Below are positions 2,694-35,455 of a stretch of 64,000 nt of DNA, piece by piece; position 1 is the stretch's first letter, and each line of letters opens with the position of its first letter. The notes beneath the pieces are model-generated. The model saw only the letters and a program-made list of their open reading frames with translations, was not told the DNA's origin and did not search any database. Source of the DNA: an uncultured Chloroflexia bacterium (lineage in GTDB: Bacteria > Chloroflexota > Limnocylindria > QHBO01); NCBI GenBank assembly GCA_963825525.1, contig CAWGTN010000002.1, forward strand, positions 1,920,001 to 1,984,000, given 5' to 3'. Position numbers and translations under genes: made by a program.

Positions 2694-4012
2694 CGGTGAT
2701 CTCGAGCGCGCGATCGATGATCGCGAACCCTTCGGCCAGCTCCTCCTCGCTGATGGTCAGCGGCGGGTTCGTGAAGAACGAGTTCCAGCGCACGAAGGTG
2801 TAAAGCCCGTCTTCGCGGAAGCGCTTCCCCAGCGCCGCCATCTCGTCGCTGGTGCCGTTGAACGGGGCCAGCGGCTCCATGGTCTCGCGGTTGCGAACGA
2901 GCTCGACGATCCCGAACAGGCCGATGCTACGGGTGGCACCCACGCTCGGATGCCTGGCCGCCAAGCTCGGCGTGGTGCTGCTTGAGAGTCTCGCCCATCT
3001 GGGCGGCCCGCTCGATGAGGTTCTCGTTCTCATACACCTCGATCGTTGCGAGCGCGGTGGCGCAGGCCAGCGGATGCGAGTTGTACGTCAGGCCGCCGTA
3101 GAAGACGTTGGAGTCGAAGTGCTCGGCGTACTTGCGCCGCATGCCGAGTGCGCCGAGCTGCACGTAGGCGCTGGTGAGTCCCTTGGCCATGGTGATGAGG
3201 TCGGGAACCACGTCCCAGTGGTCGATGGCGAACCACTTGCCGGTGCGGCCGAAGCCGGCCATCACCTCGTCGGCGATCATGAGGATGCCGTAGCGGTCGC
3301 AGATCTCGCGGACGCCCTGGATGTAGCCGTCCGGCGGCACGAGGATGCCGTTCGTGCCGGTCACCGTCTCGAGGATGAACGCGGCGATCGTGTTCGGCCC
3401 CTCGAGCTGGATCGTCTCCTCCAGGAGGGCCAGCGCCTCGTCCGCCGTGTCCCAGCCGCGCTGGATGCCGTGGTACGGATCCATCACGCGGACCACGCCG
3501 GGGATGCCCGGCTCATTGGCCCATCGGCGCGGATCACCGGTCAGGGTCATGGCGCCGGCGGTGCCGCCGTGGTAGCTGCGGTAGCGGGCCAGGATCTTGT
3601 GCCGGCCGGTCACGAGTCGCGCGAGCTTGACGGCGTTCTCGTTTGCCTCGGCGCCCCCGTTGGTGAAGAAGAAGGTGTCGATGTCGCCCGGGGTCAGCTC
3701 CGCCAGCTTCTTCCCCAGCCGCGCCCGCGGCTCCGTGGCCATGAATGGGTTCGCGTAGGCCAGCGTCTCCGCCTGGCGCTTGATCGCCTCGACGACGTGC
3801 GGATGGCCGTGGCCGATGTTCGTGCACATCAGCTGGCTGTTGAAATCCAGGAAACGCTTGCCCTCGGGCGTCCAGAAGTACACGCCCTTGGCGCCGGCCA
3901 CCGGAATCGGGTCCACCTTGCTCTGGGCGGACCACTCGAACAGCGTGTGGCGCTTTGTGAGCTCGACCATCTCGGCCCCGCTCATCGTCCCCCGATCGGT
4001 CTCGATCGCCAT
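2677..4012 (-). CDS. Class-III PLP aminotransferase (beta-alanine/taurine:pyruvate-like), frameshifted near 2960
   Basis: LDFNSQLMCTNIGH, FTNGGAEANE, SYHG, IADEVMAGFGRTG, TMAKG; C-terminus (HPSVGATRSIGLFG..NPPL) continues in another frame. Confidence 0.88.
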
Positions 4013-4715: not shown

Positions 4716-6114
4716 TCAGCCTCGGGCGCAGCGCAGGATCGCCTCGACGGACACATCGGCATCGGCCTCGGTTGTCGACCAGCTGCTTACGCTGATCCGC
4801 ATCGCCGCCATGCCGTGCCAGCTTGTCCCGGACAGCCAGAGGGTTCCGTCCTCCTGGACGCGGCGGATCACTTCGCGCGTGAACGCGTCGGCGTCGCCGC
4901 CGTCGGCCGGGGTGAAGCGCACGAGCACCTGGTTCAGGACCACGTCATTGAGGATTTCGACGCCGTCCGCCTCTGCGAGCCCGGCGGCCATGCGGCGGGC
5001 GATCGCGCAGGTGCGTTCGATCATGTCTCGCACGCCGCGACGGCCGAGCGTGCGGAGGGCCGCATACATCGTGAACCCGCGGGCGCGGCGCGAGAACTCG
5101 GGCACCCACGAAACCTCGTCGCGCTCCTGCTCGGGCCCGTACTCGAGGTAGGCGGCGTGGGGCGGTGCCATGGCGCGCACGTGGACCGCCGCATCGGCCA
5201 CGAATGCGAGCCCCGAGTCGTAGGGCACGTTCAACCACTTGTGAGCGTCGGTCGCCCAGGAGTCCGCCTCGCCGATGCCGTCAACCAGGCTCACCAGCTC
5301 GGGTGACACGGCCGCCCACAGCCCGAACGCTCCGTCGACGTGCACCCAGGCGCCCTCGCGCCGCCGCACGATTTCGATGGCACTGCGGATCGGATCGAAC
5401 GAGCCGGTGTTCACGTTGCCGGCCTGGAGGCACACGATGAGCGGTGCATCGGCCGGGATGGCGTCGAGGGTCTCGGCCAGTCGGGCGAGCTCGATCCGGC
5501 CCTCACCGTCGGTCGGCACGACGTGGACCCGGTCGCGGCCCAGGCCGAGGTACTGCAGCGCGGTGTGGAGCGTGCTGTGCGCCTCTGCTCCGACCACGAC
5601 CTGGATCTCGCGGCGCGCCGAACAAGCCCTGGGTCGTCGGATCCCAGCCCACGCGCTCGAGGACCGACTGGCGCGCGGCGGCGAGGCAGGTGAAGTGCGC
5701 CATCTGGCAGCCTGTCACGAGCCCGAAGCCGCTCGACTCCGGCAGGCCGAACAGGTCGATGAGCCACGCCCCGACCGCCTCCTCGACCACCGAGGCCGCC
5801 GGCCCGGCCACGTACAGCCCGGCGTTCTGGTCCCAGGTCGAGGTCAGCCAGTCCGCGGCCACCGCCGCCGGAAGCGAGCCCCCGATGACGAAGCCGAAGT
5901 AGCGCGGCCCGGCCATGGCGACCGCCGCCCTTCCGCCGACATCGGCAAGGTGCTCGATCACCGCCGATGGATCCTCTCCCATCTCCGGGAGCTCGACGAC
6001 GAGCTGCTCGCGCAGCTCGGCCACGTGCTGGCGTGGCATGACCCGTCGTTCGGGAAGCGAGTCGAGGAAGTCGATGGCGAGTTCGGCGGTCCGCCGAAGC
6101 AGCTCTGCACTCAT
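4716..6114 (-). CDS. Group II PLP-dependent decarboxylase, frameshifted near 5615
   Basis: PRYFGFVIGG, WDQNAG, VTGCQMAHFTCL, then in a second frame EAHST, WVHVDGAFG, DSWATDAHKWLNVPYD. Confidence 0.88.
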
Positions 6115-6123
6115 GCGCGGATC

Positions 6124-6909
6124 CTACAGCCCCGCGATGAGCCCCCCGTCGACGGCCACGAACTGCCCGGTGATGTACGACGCGCGATCCGAGGCGAGGA
6201 AGGCGACGAGAGCACCGAGCTCATTCGGCTCGCCGTAGCGCCGCGATGGAATGGTCGCGATGTGGGCGGCTCGCACCGCCTCCTCGGTCGCCCCCTCGCG
6301 TTCCGCTCGGCCCGCGTCGAGCTGGTGGACGCGGGGCGTGGCGATCCGGCCCGGCATCACGCCGTTGATGGTGACCGACTCTGCGGCCACGGCGCGGGAC
6401 GTCGTCTTGAGCCATGCGGCCAGGGCGGATCGGCCTGCATTGGAGTAGACGAGCTCGGGGATCGGCTGACGGATGCCGCTCGACAGGATGGCCACGATCC
6501 GTCCCCACCTACGCTCCCGCATGCCGGGCAGGAGGCGCGTCGCCAGGTCGATCGGCGTGCCGGCCAGCAGCTGGAATGAGCGCTGCCAGCCCGCGGCGTC
6601 GGTTGCCGTCGGGTCGATCGTCGGCGGTCCGCCGGCGTTGGAGACGAGGATGTCGATCGGCCGGAATGCGGCGGCTGCCTCGGCGATCGTGCGAGCGGCG
6701 GCCGGGTCGTAGGCATCGGCCGCGGCGGTCGCGACCTGCACCCCGTGGGTGGACCGCAGCCCTTCGGCGGTCTCGGCCAGCGCATCCGCGTCGCGCGACC
6801 AGATGAGGAGGTCGCAGCCTTCTGCAGCCAGCGCCTCGGCCGACGCACGTCCCAGCCCCGACGTCGCCCCGCCGACGACGGCCGCGCGTCCCGCAATTCC
6901 GAGGTCCAT
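6124..6909 (-). CDS. SDR family oxidoreductase
   Basis: GGATSGLG, NAGGP, YSNAGR, PGRIATPR. Confidence 0.9.
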   Translation of the reverse strand: MDLGIAGRAAVVGGATSGLGRASAEALAAEGCDLLIWSRDADALAETAEGLRSTHGVQVATAAADAYDPAAARTIAEAAAAFRPIDILVSNAGGPPTIDPTATDAAGWQRSFQLLAGTPIDLATRLLPGMRERRWGRIVAILSSGIRQPIPELVYSNAGRSALAAWLKTTSRAVAAESVTINGVMPGRIATPRVHQLDAGRAEREGATEEAVRAAHIATIPSRRYGEPNELGALVAFLASDRASYITGQFVAVDGGLIAGL

Positions 6910-6912
6910 CAG

Positions 6913-7992
6913 TCAGTCGTGCTGCAGCTGCAGGGGTCGGAGCTTGCCGAGCGATTCGGCCACGACGACGGCGTCGTCGCCCTCTGCCAGCCGAAAGTCG
7001 GCCGACGGGTTCGTGAGCGAGTGGCCGTCGCGCGTCACGGCCAGCAGCGTCGCTCGATGCTCGCCGCGCAGCTTCGTCGAAAGCTCGTCGATCGTGAGCC
7101 CGACGTAGTCGGCCGGGAGGGCGACCCGATAGAGCTCCGACCCGTCGCCGCCCGAGACGAGGTCGGTCACCAGGCCCGACAGCCCCGGGTACAGGGCAGA
7201 GCGGGCGAGCAGGCGTGACGCCAGCCGCGAGGTCACGAGAATCTCGTCGGCCTCGGCGCGGCGGAAGTGATCGACATGGGCCGGGTTGTTGGCCTCGACG
7301 ACGGTCCGGACGGTCGGCGCGATCGACTCGATGGCCATCACGGCCAGGATCGAGCGCATGTCCGCCTCGTTGGTCGCATCGGCGGGGAAGACCACCGCCG
7401 AGGAGGCGTCGCGGATTCCGCAGCGCTCGAGATCGTCGGTGTTCGTGATGTCCCCGCGCACGAAGTAGACGCCGTCACCGGCCGGATTGCGGTCGCTGTC
7501 GTGGAGGAGCACGACCCTGGCGGCGAACTCGTCGCCCTTCAGCTCCTCGATGAGGTCGCGGGCGGTGGTGTTCCAGCCGCAGACGACGATGTGGTCGCGG
7601 TATCCCGCGGCGCCCATGCCCTGGCCCTCCTTGAGCAGGAAATCAATGACGAAGCCGACGACCGCCCCGGTCATGGCGGCCACGATGGCGACGCCGAAGA
7701 ACGCTAGCAGCCACCCGATGATGAAGCCTCCCGGTGAGGCCACGTAGCTCGGATCACCCGAGCCGATGACGGTGGTGATGGCCCAGTAGAACGAGCTGCC
7801 GAAGCCGGCCAGCGACTGCTTGTCGTCCTCCAGCAGGGTGACGCCGATGGCGGCCACCGCGACGAACCCGATGATCGCGGTCAGCAGGGAGGCGAAGAAG
7901 TGCCGATCCATCTGGCCGCCGATGCGTTTCGCGTGGAAGCTCATGCGCCGAAGCAGGGGAGCGGCGAACAGCGCCTGGAGCGGTCTCGGCAC
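6913..7992 (-). CDS. 2-TM potassium channel with TrkA/RCK domains
   Basis: SFYWAITTVIGSGD pore helix and variant filter; HIVVCGW Rossmann motif; TrkA-C end; GGGAGG RBS before GTG. Confidence 0.8.
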   Translation of the reverse strand: MPRPLQALFAAPLLRRMSFHAKRIGGQMDRHFFASLLTAIIGFVAVAAIGVTLLEDDKQSLAGFGSSFYWAITTVIGSGDPSYVASPGGFIIGWLLAFFGVAIVAAMTGAVVGFVIDFLLKEGQGMGAAGYRDHIVVCGWNTTARDLIEELKGDEFAARVVLLHDSDRNPAGDGVYFVRGDITNTDDLERCGIRDASSAVVFPADATNEADMRSILAVMAIESIAPTVRTVVEANNPAHVDHFRRAEADEILVTSRLASRLLARSALYPGLSGLVTDLVSGGDGSELYRVALPADYVGLTIDELSTKLRGEHRATLLAVTRDGHSLTNPSADFRLAEGDDAVVVAESLGKLRPLQLQHD

Positions 7993-31600: not shown

Positions 31601-32278
31601 TCAGCCGGGGAGCGTGTGGTCGCGCACCTCGTCCAGCACGCAGCGACCGCCGATTTCAACGAACCCGCCGGACACGGGCCGGCTGAACAGGACGGATCCG
31701 CGGCCCTGGTGGATTTCGATCGGGCGGCCGACGCGACTGCCGAGAACGACGGCCGCCGCCCCGGTCGCTTCGTCCTCGCCGATGCCGAGGTCGGGAACGA
31801 AGTATCGGCTTCGTACCGTCCCAGCCGCCTCGTCGATCCAGGCCCACGGGTAGTAGGAGCCGCTCCCGGCCGGCGCTCCCCGCATCGCGTCGACGTCAGC
31901 GGGCGTCGCCAGTTGCTCCATCTGAATGGGATGGACCCACTCGGGGTGGCCACGGATCCAGCGCAGCTCGCCGTCCTGCCACGTGGCGACCTCGCCGGCG
32001 GGCGGACGCAGCGTCTCCACCGGCTCACCGAGCTGGTCCAGGAGCCAGCAGGTGCCAACCGTCGGATGGCCGGCGAAGGGCAGCTCAGCGGCGGGCGTGT
32101 GGATTCGAACCACGCCCCGAACCCGATCCTCCACGAACACGGTCTCGCTGAACCCGAGATCCGCGGCGACGCGCTGGCGGAGCGATGGATCGATGCCCGA
32201 ACCATCGAGGAAGACCCCGAGCGGGTTGCCATGGGTCTCGTCGGGAGCGACGAACACGCGAAGCACGTGAAGCTTCAT
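31601..32278 (-). CDS. PhzF-family isomerase
   Basis: GNPLGV, SETVFV, ELPFAGHPTVG, EDEATG. Confidence 0.9.
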   Translation of the reverse strand: MKLHVLRVFVAPDETHGNPLGVFLDGSGIDPSLRQRVAADLGFSETVFVEDRVRGVVRIHTPAAELPFAGHPTVGTCWLLDQLGEPVETLRPPAGEVATWQDGELRWIRGHPEWVHPIQMEQLATPADVDAMRGAPAGSGSYYPWAWIDEAAGTVRSRYFVPDLGIGEDEATGAAAVVLGSRVGRPIEIHQGRGSVLFSRPVSGGFVEIGGRCVLDEVRDHTLPG

Positions 32279-33855
32279 CGGCGCAGCCGATCGGTGACCT
32301 CGAAGAAGTCGTAGAAGTGGTAGAGGTCCTCGTGCGCCCAGATCCGGTCGGGGAGCAGCGGGAGATCGGCGCCGAAGCGCGCGTTGAAGATGATGCGGAA
32401 CGCGTTCACCGGCGTCAGCGCATCGTGGAAGCCGAATTCCTCGAGATCGACATCGGGCACACGCATGGCATACAGGACGCCGAACTTCTCCTCGAGCTCC
32501 GCGTCGGTCGCGTCGCGCCACTCGAACCGCCACTCGTCCTCGCGATATCGCTTCGGGAATGGCCCCTCGTCGCCCTGAAGCATGATGATCGCGTCCGGCC
32601 CGGATTGGGCCAGGATCCGATCCACGAGCTGGATCATCCGGTCGTTCGCGAAGCTGAGCTGGCGCCGATAGCTCTCGGGCTGCCCCTGCGCCGCCACCTG
32701 CTGGCGGTCCATGAACGACCCGTCACGATCGAACACGTACGGGTCGTGCGGAATGAGCAGGTGCGCGAACACGAACTTCGGGCCGGGCGTGGCGGGGATC
32801 TCGTCGAGGCGCTCCAGCTCATACAACGTGTGCTCGCGCAGGACGCGCCAATCCCAGGGGTCGGTCGGTGCCGCATCCGGCTCGTCGAAGGCCCGCAGGA
32901 TGGTGGTCTGGGCAAGCGCGCTGGAGAACTCGTCCTGGCCCTCGTAGTGGAAGGTCCGATCGGCATCGACGTTGGTCTCGGTCGGCGTCCACCAGTTCGA
33001 GACGTGGAGGTAGCGGTACCCGAGCTCCTTCAAAGCCGAAGGGACGGCCAGGTGGTCCCGAAGGACCCGATGGATCGGCTCGCGATCCTCGCCGCTGGAT
33101 GCGTCGGCCCTCAATGCCGCCGGGTCCAGGAAATCGAGATTCAGCGAGCTGCCGAGCGAGAGGGGCGTCTTGATGTAGTTGCTGTGGGCGTGGCGAGCGA
33201 CCGCGAACCCGCGCGACTCGAGCGCGGTGAGGAACGGCTCGTTATCGAAGTCGTAGGCCTCCTCGAGGGTGGTGGAACCCGCGTAACGGTCGAGGATGAT
33301 GTAGTACACGTCCGGCAAATCGGTGGAGTCGGCGGGCTCCAGGTGGACGGGTGTGACATTCGTCGCCGGTTGGCTCGATCCCAGGGCCACCATGCTGCCG
33401 GCCACGCTCCATGCGTTGAGCAGCAGCGCGATCCCGGCCACCAGGTTCAGGGCGCGTGTCGCGTTCCGCGCATCGCGACCGAAACGCCACGCCAGGCCGA
33501 GCCCGATGAGCACCAGCGCGGCCCATGCGCCGATCAGGGGCCACTGGGAGGTGAGCGACGAGCTCACGGCGTTCCACGCGTGGCCGTATCCGAAGAACCC
33601 GGCGACCAGGACGGTCGTCAGCAGGGCCGCGCGGTGCCATCCGCCGGCGAGCACGGCGAGGATGGCCAGCAGGACGGCCGCCGATCCGACCGCCAGCGCG
33701 AGCGGCCCCCATAGAGGCGCCAGTGTCAGCTGATCGGCGGCGTTCGCCGAAAACAGAAAGACGACCGGGTAGGCGGCGGCGAGCAGTGGATGAACGGGGA
33801 GTGCGCCCCATTCGACTCGTGTGCGATGGCTCACCTGACGCCGTGCGGGTAACAT
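32275..33855 (-). CDS. Membrane-anchored sulfatase/alkaline-phosphatase-fold transferase (LtaS/NoeB-like)
   Basis: About 5 N-terminal TMs; PDVYYIILDRY, SNYIKTPLS (Thr at the nucleophile position), FAHLLIPHDPY, LQGDEG. Confidence 0.75.
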   Translation of the reverse strand: MLPARRQVSHRTRVEWGALPVHPLLAAAYPVVFLFSANAADQLTLAPLWGPLALAVGSAAVLLAILAVLAGGWHRAALLTTVLVAGFFGYGHAWNAVSSSLTSQWPLIGAWAALVLIGLGLAWRFGRDARNATRALNLVAGIALLLNAWSVAGSMVALGSSQPATNVTPVHLEPADSTDLPDVYYIILDRYAGSTTLEEAYDFDNEPFLTALESRGFAVARHAHSNYIKTPLSLGSSLNLDFLDPAALRADASSGEDREPIHRVLRDHLAVPSALKELGYRYLHVSNWWTPTETNVDADRTFHYEGQDEFSSALAQTTILRAFDEPDAAPTDPWDWRVLREHTLYELERLDEIPATPGPKFVFAHLLIPHDPYVFDRDGSFMDRQQVAAQGQPESYRRQLSFANDRMIQLVDRILAQSGPDAIIMLQGDEGPFPKRYREDEWRFEWRDATDAELEEKFGVLYAMRVPDVDLEEFGFHDALTPVNAFRIIFNARFGADLPLLPDRIWAHEDLYHFYDFFEVTDRLRR

Positions 33856-33885
33856 CCGGACAACACTACCCGAGGGGCACTCCCC

Positions 33886-34071
33886 ATGCCGTTACTGGCG
33901 TATATCGATCCCGGGTCCGGCAGCATGCTGCTCCAGGTCCTGCTGGCCGGAGCATTGGCCGTCCCGTTCTTCTTCCGTCGCGTGATCGGCGACGCGTGGC
34001 ATCGAATCAGGGGCGGCCGCACAACATCGCGGCCCGAAGATGGCGCCGAGGACGCCGCCGGCGATCGCTGA
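33886..34071 (+). CDS. YIDPGSGS-motif single-TM micropeptide
   Basis: MPLLAYIDPGSGSMLLQVLLAGALAVPFFFRR; GAGGGG RBS; overlaps the next gene. Confidence 0.75.
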   Translation: MPLLAYIDPGSGSMLLQVLLAGALAVPFFFRRVIGDAWHRIRGGRTTSRPEDGAEDAAGDR

Positions 34072-35455
34072 CTCGCCGACGGTGGATCCGGGCTCCTTCC
34101 GCGATCCCGCCGGCCTCGTCTTCCGCCGTGACGGAACGCTCTACCGGCAGGTGAACCGGGCCGGCGCAGCGGACTGGGACCTGTACCGGTCCTCCGGCCT
34201 CCACGATCGGCTGGTGGCTGATCGCCTCGTGGTCGACCATGTCGAGGAGCCCCTGGACCTCGCGCTCTCGCCGGACGCCGCGGCGGTGATCCGCCCTCGC
34301 CTGGTGGAGATGATCTCGTATCCATACGAGTGGTCGTTCTCGCAGCTCAAGGACGCGGCCCTGCTCACCCTTGACCTCCAGGCGCGCGCACTGGATGTCG
34401 GGATGCGGCTCAAGGACGCCAGCGCCTACAACATCCAGTTCGATGCGGGTCGGCCGATCCTCATCGACACGTTGAGCTTCGAGGCCGCTGCGCCCACCGA
34501 GCCGTGGCCCGCATATCGCCAGTTCTGCGAGCACTTCCTGGCGCCCCTCGCGCTCATGGCGCACCGCGACGTGCGCTGCGGACTGATGCTGCGCGAGTTC
34601 ATCGATGGCATCCCGCTCGACCTGGCAGCTCGCCTGATGCCGGGACGCACGAAGCTGAACCCGGGACTGCTGGCGCATCTCCACCTGCACGCGGGCGCGC
34701 AGCGTCGAGCGGCCAACGAGACGCCTCCGGCGGAGGGCGCGCCGAAGCGAGCTCGCACGGTCAGCGCCACCGGCCAGCGCGCGCTGCTCGACTCGATTCG
34801 CCGCACGATCGCGGGGCTGAGCTGGCGTCCGCGAAGCCACTGGGCCGGGTACGCGACAACCACCTCGTACAGCGAGACGGCCACCGCCAGCAAGGGAAGC
34901 CTGGTGCGCGACATGCTCGACGAGGTGGCGGGCACCACGGCCTGGGACCTCGGGGCCAACACCGGCGTGTACAGCGCAATGGCCGCCGATGCCGGCTACC
35001 GGGTGGTCGCCTGGGACCAGGACGCGGCGAGCGTCGAGGCCCACTGGCTGCAGGTGCGAGGCGACGGCCGCCCGTCGATCCTGCCCCTGGTGCTTGACCT
35101 GGCGAACCCGTCGCCGGCCATCGGCTGGGCGCTCGAGGAGCGTGCCTCGTTCATCGAACGAGGCGAACCCGACGTGATCCTGGCGCTGGCGCTTGTCCAC
35201 CATCTCGCCATCGGCAACAACGTGCCACTCGCGGCCATCGCCCGCCTGTTCGCGCGCATGTCGCGCCATGCCATCGTCGAATTCGTGCCGAAGGACGACC
35301 CGATGACGCGGCGCCTGCTCGCCGCGCGCCCGGACATCTTCGACTCGTACACCCTCGATGGCTTCCGCGCCGATGTCGAGGCCACGCATCGGATCGTCCG
35401 CGAGGAGCGCGTCGCCGATTCACCGCGCACCCTGTTCCTGCTCGAGCGGCGCTGA
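34040..35455 (+). CDS. NoeA-like kinase-fold plus class I SAM methyltransferase fusion
   Basis: SFRDP, SYPYEWS, LKDASAYNIQF..ILIDTLSF; C-terminal WDLGANTG, LALALVHHLAI, EFVPKDDPM. Confidence 0.8.
   Translation: MAPRTPPAIADSPTVDPGSFRDPAGLVFRRDGTLYRQVNRAGAADWDLYRSSGLHDRLVADRLVVDHVEEPLDLALSPDAAAVIRPRLVEMISYPYEWSFSQLKDAALLTLDLQARALDVGMRLKDASAYNIQFDAGRPILIDTLSFEAAAPTEPWPAYRQFCEHFLAPLALMAHRDVRCGLMLREFIDGIPLDLAARLMPGRTKLNPGLLAHLHLHAGAQRRAANETPPAEGAPKRARTVSATGQRALLDSIRRTIAGLSWRPRSHWAGYATTTSYSETATASKGSLVRDMLDEVAGTTAWDLGANTGVYSAMAADAGYRVVAWDQDAASVEAHWLQVRGDGRPSILPLVLDLANPSPAIGWALEERASFIERGEPDVILALALVHHLAIGNNVPLAAIARLFARMSRHAIVEFVPKDDPMTRRLLAARPDIFDSYTLDGFRADVEATHRIVREERVADSPRTLFLLERR

Follow-up and report, generated by a model that had tools for sequence, protein, structure and literature searches.

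A micropeptide–NoeA–NoeB cassette in an uncultured Chloroflexia bacterium and its possible role in cell-surface decoration

Three genes that lie together at positions 32275–35455 of a 64 000-nucleotide (nt) stretch from an uncultured Chloroflexia bacterium (assembly GCA_963825525.1, contig CAWGTN010000002.1) raise the question of what a membrane-anchored phosphatase-fold enzyme, a 61-amino-acid (aa) membrane peptide and a kinase-like domain fused to a methyltransferase might accomplish together. The whole stretch is termed the window in what follows. A sequence-only reading of the window had proposed that the fusion enzyme phosphorylates and then methylates the peptide, which would carry the resulting methyl-phosphate group to an outward-facing transferase. 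Our analysis indicates that the three genes are almost certainly a member of a widespread cassette, (micropeptide)-NoeA-NoeB, here from a soil Chloroflexota genome that the names of close homologues assign to the Limnocylindria type. With regard to function we lean, with limited conviction, towards a cassette that contains a bitopic accessory peptide and probably decorates the cell surface. The coordinates of the open reading frames (ORFs) agree with the earlier description of three genes around a 30-bp divergent spacer, for which the longest ORFs are used; the start of the NoeB-like enzyme is perhaps a few codons further in. The features are as follows.

32275–33855, minus strand: NoeB-like membrane enzyme, 526 aa (ORF call), with four to five N-terminal transmembrane (TM) helices and an alkaline-phosphatase/sulfatase-fold domain
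33856–33885, no strand: divergent spacer of 30 bp that separates the start codons of the longest ORFs
33886–34071, plus strand: micropeptide, 61 aa, with MPLLA, the YIDPGSGS motif, a TM helix that includes Q17, a basic stretch RRVIGDAWHRIRGGR and an acidic tail
34040–35455, plus strand: NoeA-like ORF in its longest form, 471 aa (ORF call)
34040–34081, plus strand: possible 5′ extension of the NoeA-like ORF from ATG 34040, with a 32-nt overlap with the peptide gene; probably untranslated
34082–34831, plus strand: kinase-like domain of the NoeA-like protein, residues 15–264 of the 471-aa ORF (alignment, AF2 domain model, Foldseek, VIA)
34832–35455, plus strand: class I S-adenosylmethionine (SAM) methyltransferase domain of the NoeA-like protein, stop codon included (weak Pfam methyltransferase matches, invariant residues, VIA, Foldseek, comparison of the profile with the PDB)

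The resemblance to rhizobial NoeA and NoeB, which had been noticed from the sequence, proves to be true homology. In tblastn searches the window's fusion enzyme matches the gene that follows nodL on the pSym plasmid of Sinorhizobium meliloti with 36% identity over residues 4–456 of 457, or 99% of the length (E = 1e-55), and 57 of the 65 records retrieved are Sinorhizobium plasmids. This S. meliloti gene is called noeA from its position after nodL, the record being unannotated. In strain SM11 (pSmeSM11c) the gene order is a NodL-like acetyltransferase, an 82-aa ORF, a 476-aa NoeA homologue and a 553-aa phosphatase-fold membrane protein. The last of these is related to the window family at an hhalign probability of 98% (E = 2.8e-13) over 104 columns that cover the catalytic core only. 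The 82-aa ORF (L110, 3715–3963) begins with MNNNQ, carries a leader that ends ILSIVPAHA and continues as YLDPGTGSMLVQ..., so that YLDPGTGS follows directly on AHA. It overlaps the start of the noeA-like gene and is 45% identical to the window peptide over 42 aa (E = 8e-9). The annotation of Rhizobium sp. T1470 lists nodL, a hypothetical protein (a 216-nt coding sequence, L112 3251–3466), a class I SAM-dependent methyltransferase and a sulfatase-like hydrolase/transferase, and on a Singulisphaera plasmid a homologue of the methyltransferase is paired with a protein that NCBI annotates as an 'LTA synthase family protein'. The nodL-noeA-noeB operon has traditionally been given as three genes, and the 82-aa ORF between nodL and noeA is additional. 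Both noe genes of this S. meliloti nod-box n5 operon are said to have been described by Ardourel et al. in 1995 as host-range genes. A natural truncation of noeA accompanies a nodulation defect (PMC4053727), and modification of the Nod factor by NoeA and NoeB is given as a hypothesis only (PMC9048898). The chemistry of the two proteins is still treated as hypothetical in the sources that we cite (PMC9758233; PMC9048898).

The cassette is already described in a 2022 Sci Rep survey of kinases (PMC9758233), and the window adds no new kind of system. According to that paper, Lani_1194 is a kinase that has R38 in place of the catalytic Lys and is fused to a methyltransferase, and NoeA is homologous to it. 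Its family is reported to have no identifiable ion-pair Glu together with a conserved Asp/Asn/Asp set, and to number about two thousand homologues from 1201 species outside Legionella. Lani_1193 is present in 65% and Lani_1195 in 38% of 816 neighbourhoods, and Lani_1195 and NoeB are both assigned the alkaline-phosphatase fold (PMC9758233).

Because the trio recurs across phyla, it is not a chance assembly. The kinase-methyltransferase family comprises 5994 representative clusters at E ≤ 0.001 and 1827 at E ≤ 1e-30. Our locus sample consists of the 80 best loci of a genome-wide scan and spans many phyla, including candidate phyla and one record labelled archaeon. When this sample was searched by phmmer with the window peptide, a small ORF was found in 68 of the 80 loci, while a strict motif pattern located a same-strand ORF just upstream of the kinase-methyltransferase gene in 59. 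A model built on those 59 peptides matches in 76 of the 80 loci and gives no stray matches on the opposite strand or elsewhere, which bears out the co-occurrence that the sequence-only reading had put forward as a check. The upstream sequence of three of the four loci with no match to the model is just 40, 47 and 82 nt long, and L057 is a genuine miss. The peptide gene usually ends at, or overlaps, the start of the kinase-methyltransferase gene. Of the 50 fully flanked loci, 34 include a member of the phosphatase-fold family (directly downstream on the same strand in 20, upstream in 9), and in all five tested genomes whose locus is without one it is encoded elsewhere in the genome. Glycan genes (Wzy_C, Capsule_synth, epimerase) lie near some cassettes, but no other neighbour is conserved across the 80 loci, the next largest neighbour cluster being represented in 7.

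Co-occurrence is equally strict at the level of genomes. In an even draw of 151 genomes from the phylum, the kinase-methyltransferase is present in 13 and the phosphatase-fold family in 14, and all 13 are among the 14. Only one of the 138 genomes without the kinase-methyltransferase carries the phosphatase-fold family, and that extra copy contains two stop codons. As judged from gene content, the trio is a conserved unit to which the tiny third gene belongs almost without exception, the rhizobial operon included. The divergent arrangement of enzyme and peptide seen in the window is found in loci of the same genus (e.g. L003, L004, L008 and L010) and in G152. One sampled locus, L018, has a peptide frame that is broken inside the motif (YIDPGSGSLIDPGRDRR..., 3630–3960) and a second model match in another frame, and its phosphatase-fold gene is split into ORFs of 224 aa and 401 aa (5423–7005). 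This locus represents either a decaying cassette or assembly errors.

The description of the NoeA-like protein as a kinase fold joined to a SAM methyltransferase is confirmed by structural modelling. An AF2 model of the whole protein has a pLDDT of 94, and its C-terminal half yields VIA Z-scores of 16–18 to class I methyltransferases, the methylphosphate capping enzyme and WbdD among them. The listed VIA matches of the whole protein were all taken by the methyltransferase domain, and hence the kinase domain was folded and searched alone. The resulting model has a pLDDT of 93 and matches protein kinases only. The best Foldseek match is PknG (E = 2e-5), and in VIA, which is independent of Foldseek, all 50 listed matches are kinases (Z-scores of 8.1–9.7, with 163–204 residues aligned). 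R36, D126, N131 and D143 are invariant across 42 diverse members; the Arg occupies the place of the catalytic Lys, and the conserved Asp/Asn/Asp set is equivalent to D166, N171 and D184 of PKA, a numbering taken from PMC9758233 and the motif pattern without superposition. Invariant features of the methyltransferase domain are D303-x-G-x-N-x-G, N356-P357-S-P, H387-H388 and R463. Pfam returns only weak methyltransferase matches for this protein, which has neither a signal peptide nor a TM helix; one marginal hydrophobic window falls inside the folded methyltransferase domain.

The same protein was earlier taken to be encoded by a gene that overlaps the peptide gene, which is doubtful. Alignments of its relatives begin only at residue 14–18 of the 471-aa ORF and close homologues are mostly 457–458 aa long, and for these reasons the real start is probably GTG 34082, located 10 nt past the peptide stop, rather than ATG 34040. 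Residues 1–9 of the longest ORF have a pLDDT below 50 in the AF2 model. With a start at GTG 34082 there would be no overlap between the two genes.

The closest structural precedent for the NoeA-like protein is WbdD. When the whole model is searched with Foldseek, WbdD structures are the top matches (E = 1.3e-8), and WbdD is also the best match of the family profile among PDB sequences (E = 0.003). WbdD phosphorylates a terminal mannose hydroxyl and then methylates the phosphate, and its H132 and H133, with R203, are essential for methylation of the sugar-bound phosphate (PMC3482155). The invariant H387 and H388 align with this His pair in the HMMER alignment, in which WbdD chain numbering was converted to that of the paper by a 13-residue offset deduced from matched ranges in tagged and untagged chains. 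By analogy, the proposed order of phosphorylation followed by methylation would fit the NoeA-like enzyme. From its position near the C-terminus, the invariant R463 could be guessed to be the counterpart of R203.

The NoeB-like enzyme was read correctly as a membrane-anchored protein of the alkaline-phosphatase fold that has a Thr in NYIKT and lacks CxPxR. With 27.4 bits, its match to the Pfam Sulfatase family (PF00884) passes the cut-off of 25. T230 is the Thr of NYIKT, and in an alignment of 30 family sequences it is at least 90% conserved within N-Y-x-x-T. D189, N226, S233 and S236 are likewise at least 90% conserved, and Y227, H365, H370 and D429 are invariant. At the position of the nucleophile the formylglycine motif C/S-x-P-x-R is absent, the window reading NYIKTPLS and the family consensus being N-Y-x-x-T-x-x-S. 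Because this motif is missing, the NoeB-like enzyme is not a formylglycine sulfatase, and this candidate identity was ruled out. T230 is instead the putative nucleophile. The residue that follows the invariant D429 divides the family, being Glu (D-E-G) in 16 of the 30 members, including that of the window, and His (D-H-G) in 14. On the evidence of this alignment, the split may reflect a different metal or a different substrate. Members with D-E-G also have a longer insert behind the motif (window residue 430, nt about 32566–32568).

A profile of the same 30 members compared with PDB sequences finds sulfatases best (E = 1.5e-6), with weaker matches to an EptA-like domain (4kav), the lipoteichoic acid primase LtaP (4uop) and EptA (5fgn). 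These matches are confined to the C-terminal half, and the Thr region lies outside the alignments. Hydropathy analysis reveals four strong TM segments and a weaker fifth at about residues 74–92, and the N-terminus has a charge of +3. Given five helices, the catalytic domain is predicted to face outward, as in LtaS and EptA. Conservation, profile matches and hydropathy are consistent with the LtaS/EptA-type anatomy and Thr nucleophile that had been suggested for this enzyme. NCBIfam has no family for it, and an ESM Atlas search returned only its own clusters, which are labelled Sulfatase.

Is the micropeptide a real gene product? Its size and single TM helix are as previously described, and hydropathy indicates one hydrophobic segment in the 61 aa; the peptide begins with MPLLA, however, rather than with AYIDPGSGS, and the motif is not at residue 1. 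There are 529 small homologues at E ≤ 0.01. The peptide is present in 21 of 24 genomes of the same genus (a count that includes G006) at E ≤ 4e-17, and the three genomes without it are 56%, 62% and 86% complete. Among 12 same-genus loci, the part that comprises the motif and TM helix has 479 synonymous and 103 non-synonymous differing codon pairs (pairs that are not independent of one another), and codon position 3 accounts for 522 of the 647 base differences. In the tail of the peptide the corresponding pair counts are 264 synonymous and 548 non-synonymous. Because of the synonymous excess and the bias towards position 3, the ORF is, by the pattern of its substitutions, a translated gene whose N-terminal half is constrained by purifying selection, as the carrier proposal had presumed. 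NCBIfam holds no family for the micropeptide, and the only Pfam match is a chance-level one to LEP503 (E = 0.11). A peptide fused to either enzyme was not found at E ≤ 0.01 among 358 longer candidate proteins, although this is weak evidence, and wrongly called starts seem to account for the N-terminal extensions of P0253 and others.

All 59 peptides of the strict pattern start the motif with Tyr, even though the search pattern permitted six residues there, and the Asp, Gly and Ser of the motif are conserved also in 16 matches to the peptide model outside that pattern. In the peptide alignment Q17 of the TM helix is invariant and W38 of the basic stretch is at least 90% conserved; both lie outside the pattern used for selection. 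The residue that precedes the Tyr is Ala in 41 of the 59 strict-motif homologues. A signal-peptide-like leader ends just before the motif in 30 of the 59, as assigned by a crude rule of our own that required 18 residues or more, with a hydrophobic 9-mer and small amino acids at −1 and −3, whereas fewer than 18 residues stand ahead of the motif in 17, that of the window included, and 12 are ambiguous. The window peptide has a charge of −1 ahead of the TM helix and of +4 over the 16 residues behind it.

Because leaders end before the Tyr in 30 of 59 homologues and basic residues follow the TM helix, the micropeptide most likely has its N-terminus outside and its C-terminus inside, with YIDPGSGS at the outer membrane surface. 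Leader cleavage would then leave the Tyr as the N-terminal residue in many phyla. Since the kinase-methyltransferase has no leader and no TM helix, an outward motif is out of its reach, and the part of the peptide that it could contact is the basic tail.

Which of the two enzymes is the partner of the peptide? Adjacency favours the kinase-methyltransferase (76 of 80 loci), whereas paralogue pairs in three genomes tie the peptide to the phosphatase-fold enzyme. In the window's own genome a second peptide copy (MVFAYLDPAAGG...) is located directly behind a phosphatase-fold paralogue, and there is no second kinase-methyltransferase genome-wide. In G002 a peptide paralogue lies between two phosphatase-fold paralogues. 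A different family of the phylum is represented by G152, which encodes two almost identical peptides, each gene paired divergently with a phosphatase-fold gene; a kinase-methyltransferase gene follows only one of them. Because such pairs occur without the kinase-methyltransferase, we read the peptide as a bitopic subunit of the outer enzyme. A predicted complex of the peptide and the NoeB-like enzyme gave scores of 0.24 and 0.25 against a mark of 0.32, in runs without control pairs.

Several further observations concern the paralogues. The two G152 peptide genes are about 30 kb apart (L114 5381–9600; L115 6394–14785), and whereas the first lies with the kinase-methyltransferase and a single phosphatase-fold gene, the second is divergent from three consecutive phosphatase-fold genes, each of about 750 aa and with an additional N-terminal region. 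G042 has eight full-length phosphatase-fold copies and a short fragment; four of its genes stand nearly in tandem (L116 7342–15054), interrupted by a 476-aa membrane-protein ORF, in an array without a peptide gene. Five other genomes hold remote phosphatase-fold copies (L100–L109), and a search within 1.5 kb of these revealed no peptide. The second locus of the window's genome (G000:C2:1404000–1420500; L093 4463–12633, L096, L099) holds three to four phosphatase-fold paralogues and the peptide paralogue on one strand. On the same strand are a cytidylyltransferase-like gene, a phosphoenolpyruvate (PEP) mutase, a phosphonopyruvate-decarboxylase-like thiamine pyrophosphate (TPP) enzyme, an Fe alcohol dehydrogenase and a TagF-like transferase, and the PEP mutase and TPP enzyme are split over several frames, whether by assembly indels or by decay. 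By its gene content this locus looks like a phosphonate-decoration cluster. Because tblastn searches with the phosphonate genes were negative at the four other loci examined (L113–L116, which include the comparable peptide/enzyme loci of G002 and G152), we do not extend the link to phosphonates beyond this locus.

Starting from the folds, the conserved catalytic residues, the gene linkage and the co-occurrence, we propose a topology, substrates, a methyl-phosphate product and contacts between the three proteins. For the chemistry of the two enzymes, which draws on analogy with characterized relatives, we would put the chances somewhat below even. In the cytoplasm, the NoeA-like enzyme would use ATP to phosphorylate a hydroxyl of a membrane-bound lipid or lipid-linked sugar as the acceptor, and would then use SAM to methylate the resulting phosphate in the manner of WbdD. 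On the outside, Thr230 of the NoeB-like enzyme and a bound metal would transfer a phospho-substituent from a lipid donor to a glycan, lipid or protein of the envelope, in the manner of LtaS, EptA and BcsG. As a single-span membrane protein, the micropeptide would have its Tyr-x-Asp-Pro-Gly-x-Gly-Ser motif close to the NoeB-like enzyme at the outer face and its basic tail next to the NoeA-like enzyme in the cytoplasm. Rather than a carrier loaded in the cytoplasm, it would be an accessory or coupling subunit, much as BcsF is in BcsEFG, that serves the outer enzyme and may in addition keep the inner one at the membrane.

A number of points weigh against this proposal. With only four TM helices, the catalytic domain of the NoeB-like enzyme would face inward, and it is conservation that assigns the role of nucleophile to T230. 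The leaders on which the topology of the peptide depends were assigned by a crude rule that leaves 12 of the 59 homologues ambiguous. The phosphatase-fold gene is not nearby in 16 of the 50 fully flanked loci, and the 13 genomes in which the two families co-occur represent 6 genera only and are therefore not independent. The sequence relation to WbdD is weak, the match at E = 0.003 covering the methyltransferase domain only and a stretch of the kinase loop falling below threshold, and the His pair is shared by methyltransferases with substrates other than phosphate (PMC3482155). Finally, no glycan-synthesis genes flank the cassette in the window to indicate an acceptor.

Other explanations divide the labour among the three proteins differently. 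The two enzymes might act separately, the NoeA-like protein capping or tagging a lipid-linked glycan inside and the NoeB-like protein adding phosphoglycerol or phosphoethanolamine outside, with the peptide as a tether only. We regard this as unlikely, though worth serious consideration, in view of the tighter tie of the peptide to the kinase-methyltransferase (76 of 80 loci) than of the phosphatase-fold gene to the locus (34 of 50), the activity of WbdD on a polyprenol-linked glycan at the membrane (PMC3482155), the tethering of BcsE by BcsF (PMC7439463) and the glycan genes near some cassettes. An invariant extracytoplasmic motif would nevertheless be needless for a pure tether, peptide paralogues accompany phosphatase-fold paralogues where there is no kinase-methyltransferase, and the co-occurrence in genomes (13 of 13 against 1 of 138) points to a tighter dependence. 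Nor is a glycan-synthesis gene a conserved neighbour, the next cluster being found in 7 of 80 loci. Those same paralogue pairs, the Tyr that is invariant in 59 of 59 peptides, the Asp, Gly and Ser that persist in the 16 further model matches and the predicted position of the motif beside the sole extracytoplasmic enzyme of the set would also suit a relay at the outer face, in which the phospho-group on Thr230 passes to the Tyr or a Ser/Thr of the peptide and is kept there or handed to an envelope polymer. The Tyr of DltX, an acyl shuttle, offers a precedent (PMC12148441), and what is relayed might be a head group of the methyl-phosphate type that the NoeA-type enzyme had built on a lipid. Such a covalent carrier role is possible but rather improbable. 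DltX has a C-terminal FXYXXF motif and unrelated MBOAT and SGNH partners, and a peptide is missing from the 1.5 kb around many phosphatase-fold copies (L100–L109). Enzymes of the LtaS/EptA type are not known to need a relay. If it were true, a DltX-like phosphoryl shuttle would exist in well over a thousand species and would explain the NoeA/NoeB host-range genes.

The carrier model of the sequence-only reading, in which the fusion enzyme modifies the Tyr or Ser of YIDPGSGS and the peptide takes methyl-phosphate to the outer transferase, is scarcely tenable as it stands. It would account for the kinase and phosphate-methyltransferase-like features, for the near-obligate adjacency of peptide and fusion enzyme and for the hydroxyl residues of the motif. 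The outward motif argues against this simplest form of carrier, however, since leaders ahead of the motif in 30 of 59 homologues, Ala at −1 in 41 of 59 and basic residues behind the TM helix would put the motif outside and the fusion enzyme inside. We know of no way for a single-pass peptide to flip a charged N-terminus repeatedly, and peptide paralogues exist without the fusion enzyme. The NoeB-like protein might, on the other hand, be a hydrolase (a phosphodiesterase, phosphatase or unusual sulfatase) that, for example, trims a surface phospho-substituent. It does belong to the sulfatase/alkaline-phosphatase superfamily, its best PDB matches are sulfatases and Pfam names Sulfatase only; hydrolases such as nucleotide pyrophosphatases are among the superfamily members with a Thr nucleophile. 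Against this, there is no formylglycine motif, the multi-pass anchor and outward domain correspond to the layout of LtaS and EptA, the profile matches include the EptA-like domain, LtaP and EptA, and one homologue bears the NCBI annotation of an LTA synthase family protein. Although transferase and hydrolase cannot be told apart from sequence alone, we consider a hydrolase very unlikely.

In the window, the neighbours of the cassette are a PhzF-like gene, a HAD hydrolase, a GNAT acetyltransferase, a DUF885 protein, an AlaX-like protein and an amidase. The PhzF-family gene (225 aa, 31601–32278, minus strand; PF02567, E = 3.4e-24) has an ATG that overlaps the stop codon of the phosphatase-fold gene (ATGA, 32275–32278), an arrangement that suggests translational coupling of the two genes.

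How, then, does the cassette compare with known systems? WbdD of E. coli O9a (4ax8/4azs) combines a kinase and a SAM methyltransferase in one chain, as does the NoeA-like protein, and the His-His pairs of the two align. WbdD has the domain order methyltransferase, kinase and coiled coil (PMC3482155), whereas the NoeA-like protein places the kinase before the methyltransferase, ends with the methyltransferase domain without a C-terminal coiled coil and carries Arg for the catalytic Lys. WbdD also has no micropeptide or phosphatase-fold partner and serves an O-antigen pathway that uses an ABC transporter. Membership of the WbdD family was rejected for the NoeA-like protein on the basis of the reversed domain order, the missing coiled coil and the marginal sequence relation. 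The NoeB-like enzyme resembles LtaS, EptA and BcsG in its multi-pass anchor, its phosphatase-fold domain, which is predicted to face outward, its conserved Thr and its Asp and His residues that resemble metal ligands. It differs in that it has no close sequence relation to these enzymes, in that its PDB matches cover the C-terminal half only and in the D-E-G of 16 of 30 members.

In the BcsEFG system of E. coli, the short membrane polypeptide BcsF recruits the cytosolic BcsE, and on the periplasmic side BcsG attaches phosphoethanolamine (PMC7439463). Like the cassette as we read it, this system encodes a cytosolic protein together with a small membrane polypeptide and a transferase of the phosphatase fold, although BcsE is a c-di-GMP sensor and not, like the NoeA-like protein, a pair of enzymes. 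BcsF is not known to carry the YxDPGxGS motif. The membrane microprotein DltX shuttles D-alanine on an invariant extracellular Tyr (PMC12148441). Like the micropeptide, it is a tiny single-pass membrane protein encoded with the enzymes that it serves, and its invariant Tyr corresponds to one predicted at the extracellular face in the micropeptide. The two are set apart, by description, by the C-terminal FXYXXF motif of DltX, its acyl group that passes through an MBOAT channel and its partners DltB and the SGNH protein DltD, compared with the N-terminal Y-[IL]-D-P-G-[ST]-G-S and unrelated partners of the micropeptide. In view of motif position and partners, we did not assign the micropeptide to the class of DltX-type carrier microproteins.

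The nearest relatives are the nod-box n5 operon nodL-noeA-noeB of S. meliloti and the Lani_1193/1194/1195 unit. The S. meliloti operon shares with the window a fusion enzyme that is homologous from end to end, a phosphatase-fold protein encoded nearby and a micropeptide ORF upstream. Unlike in that operon, the phosphatase-fold gene of the window is divergent and not downstream, nodL and a nod box are absent, and the peptide has no signal-peptide-like leader; moreover, the S. meliloti genes have a host-range phenotype. The Lani unit has the same kinase-methyltransferase architecture (Arg for the catalytic Lys and no identifiable ion-pair Glu in either), with an upstream gene in 65% and a phosphatase-fold gene in 38% of neighbourhoods (PMC9758233), compared with 76 of 80 and 34 of 50 loci in our sample. 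The main text of that paper casts the proteins as possible secreted effectors, and it contains no description of the upstream neighbour Lani_1193, no topology and no peptide motif; we infer that Lani_1193 is the micropeptide. What the present analysis contributes to this published family is the argument for an outward motif, the strict co-occurrence of the two enzymes, the pairs of peptide and phosphatase-fold enzyme that occur without the kinase-methyltransferase and the correspondence with the His-His pair of WbdD.

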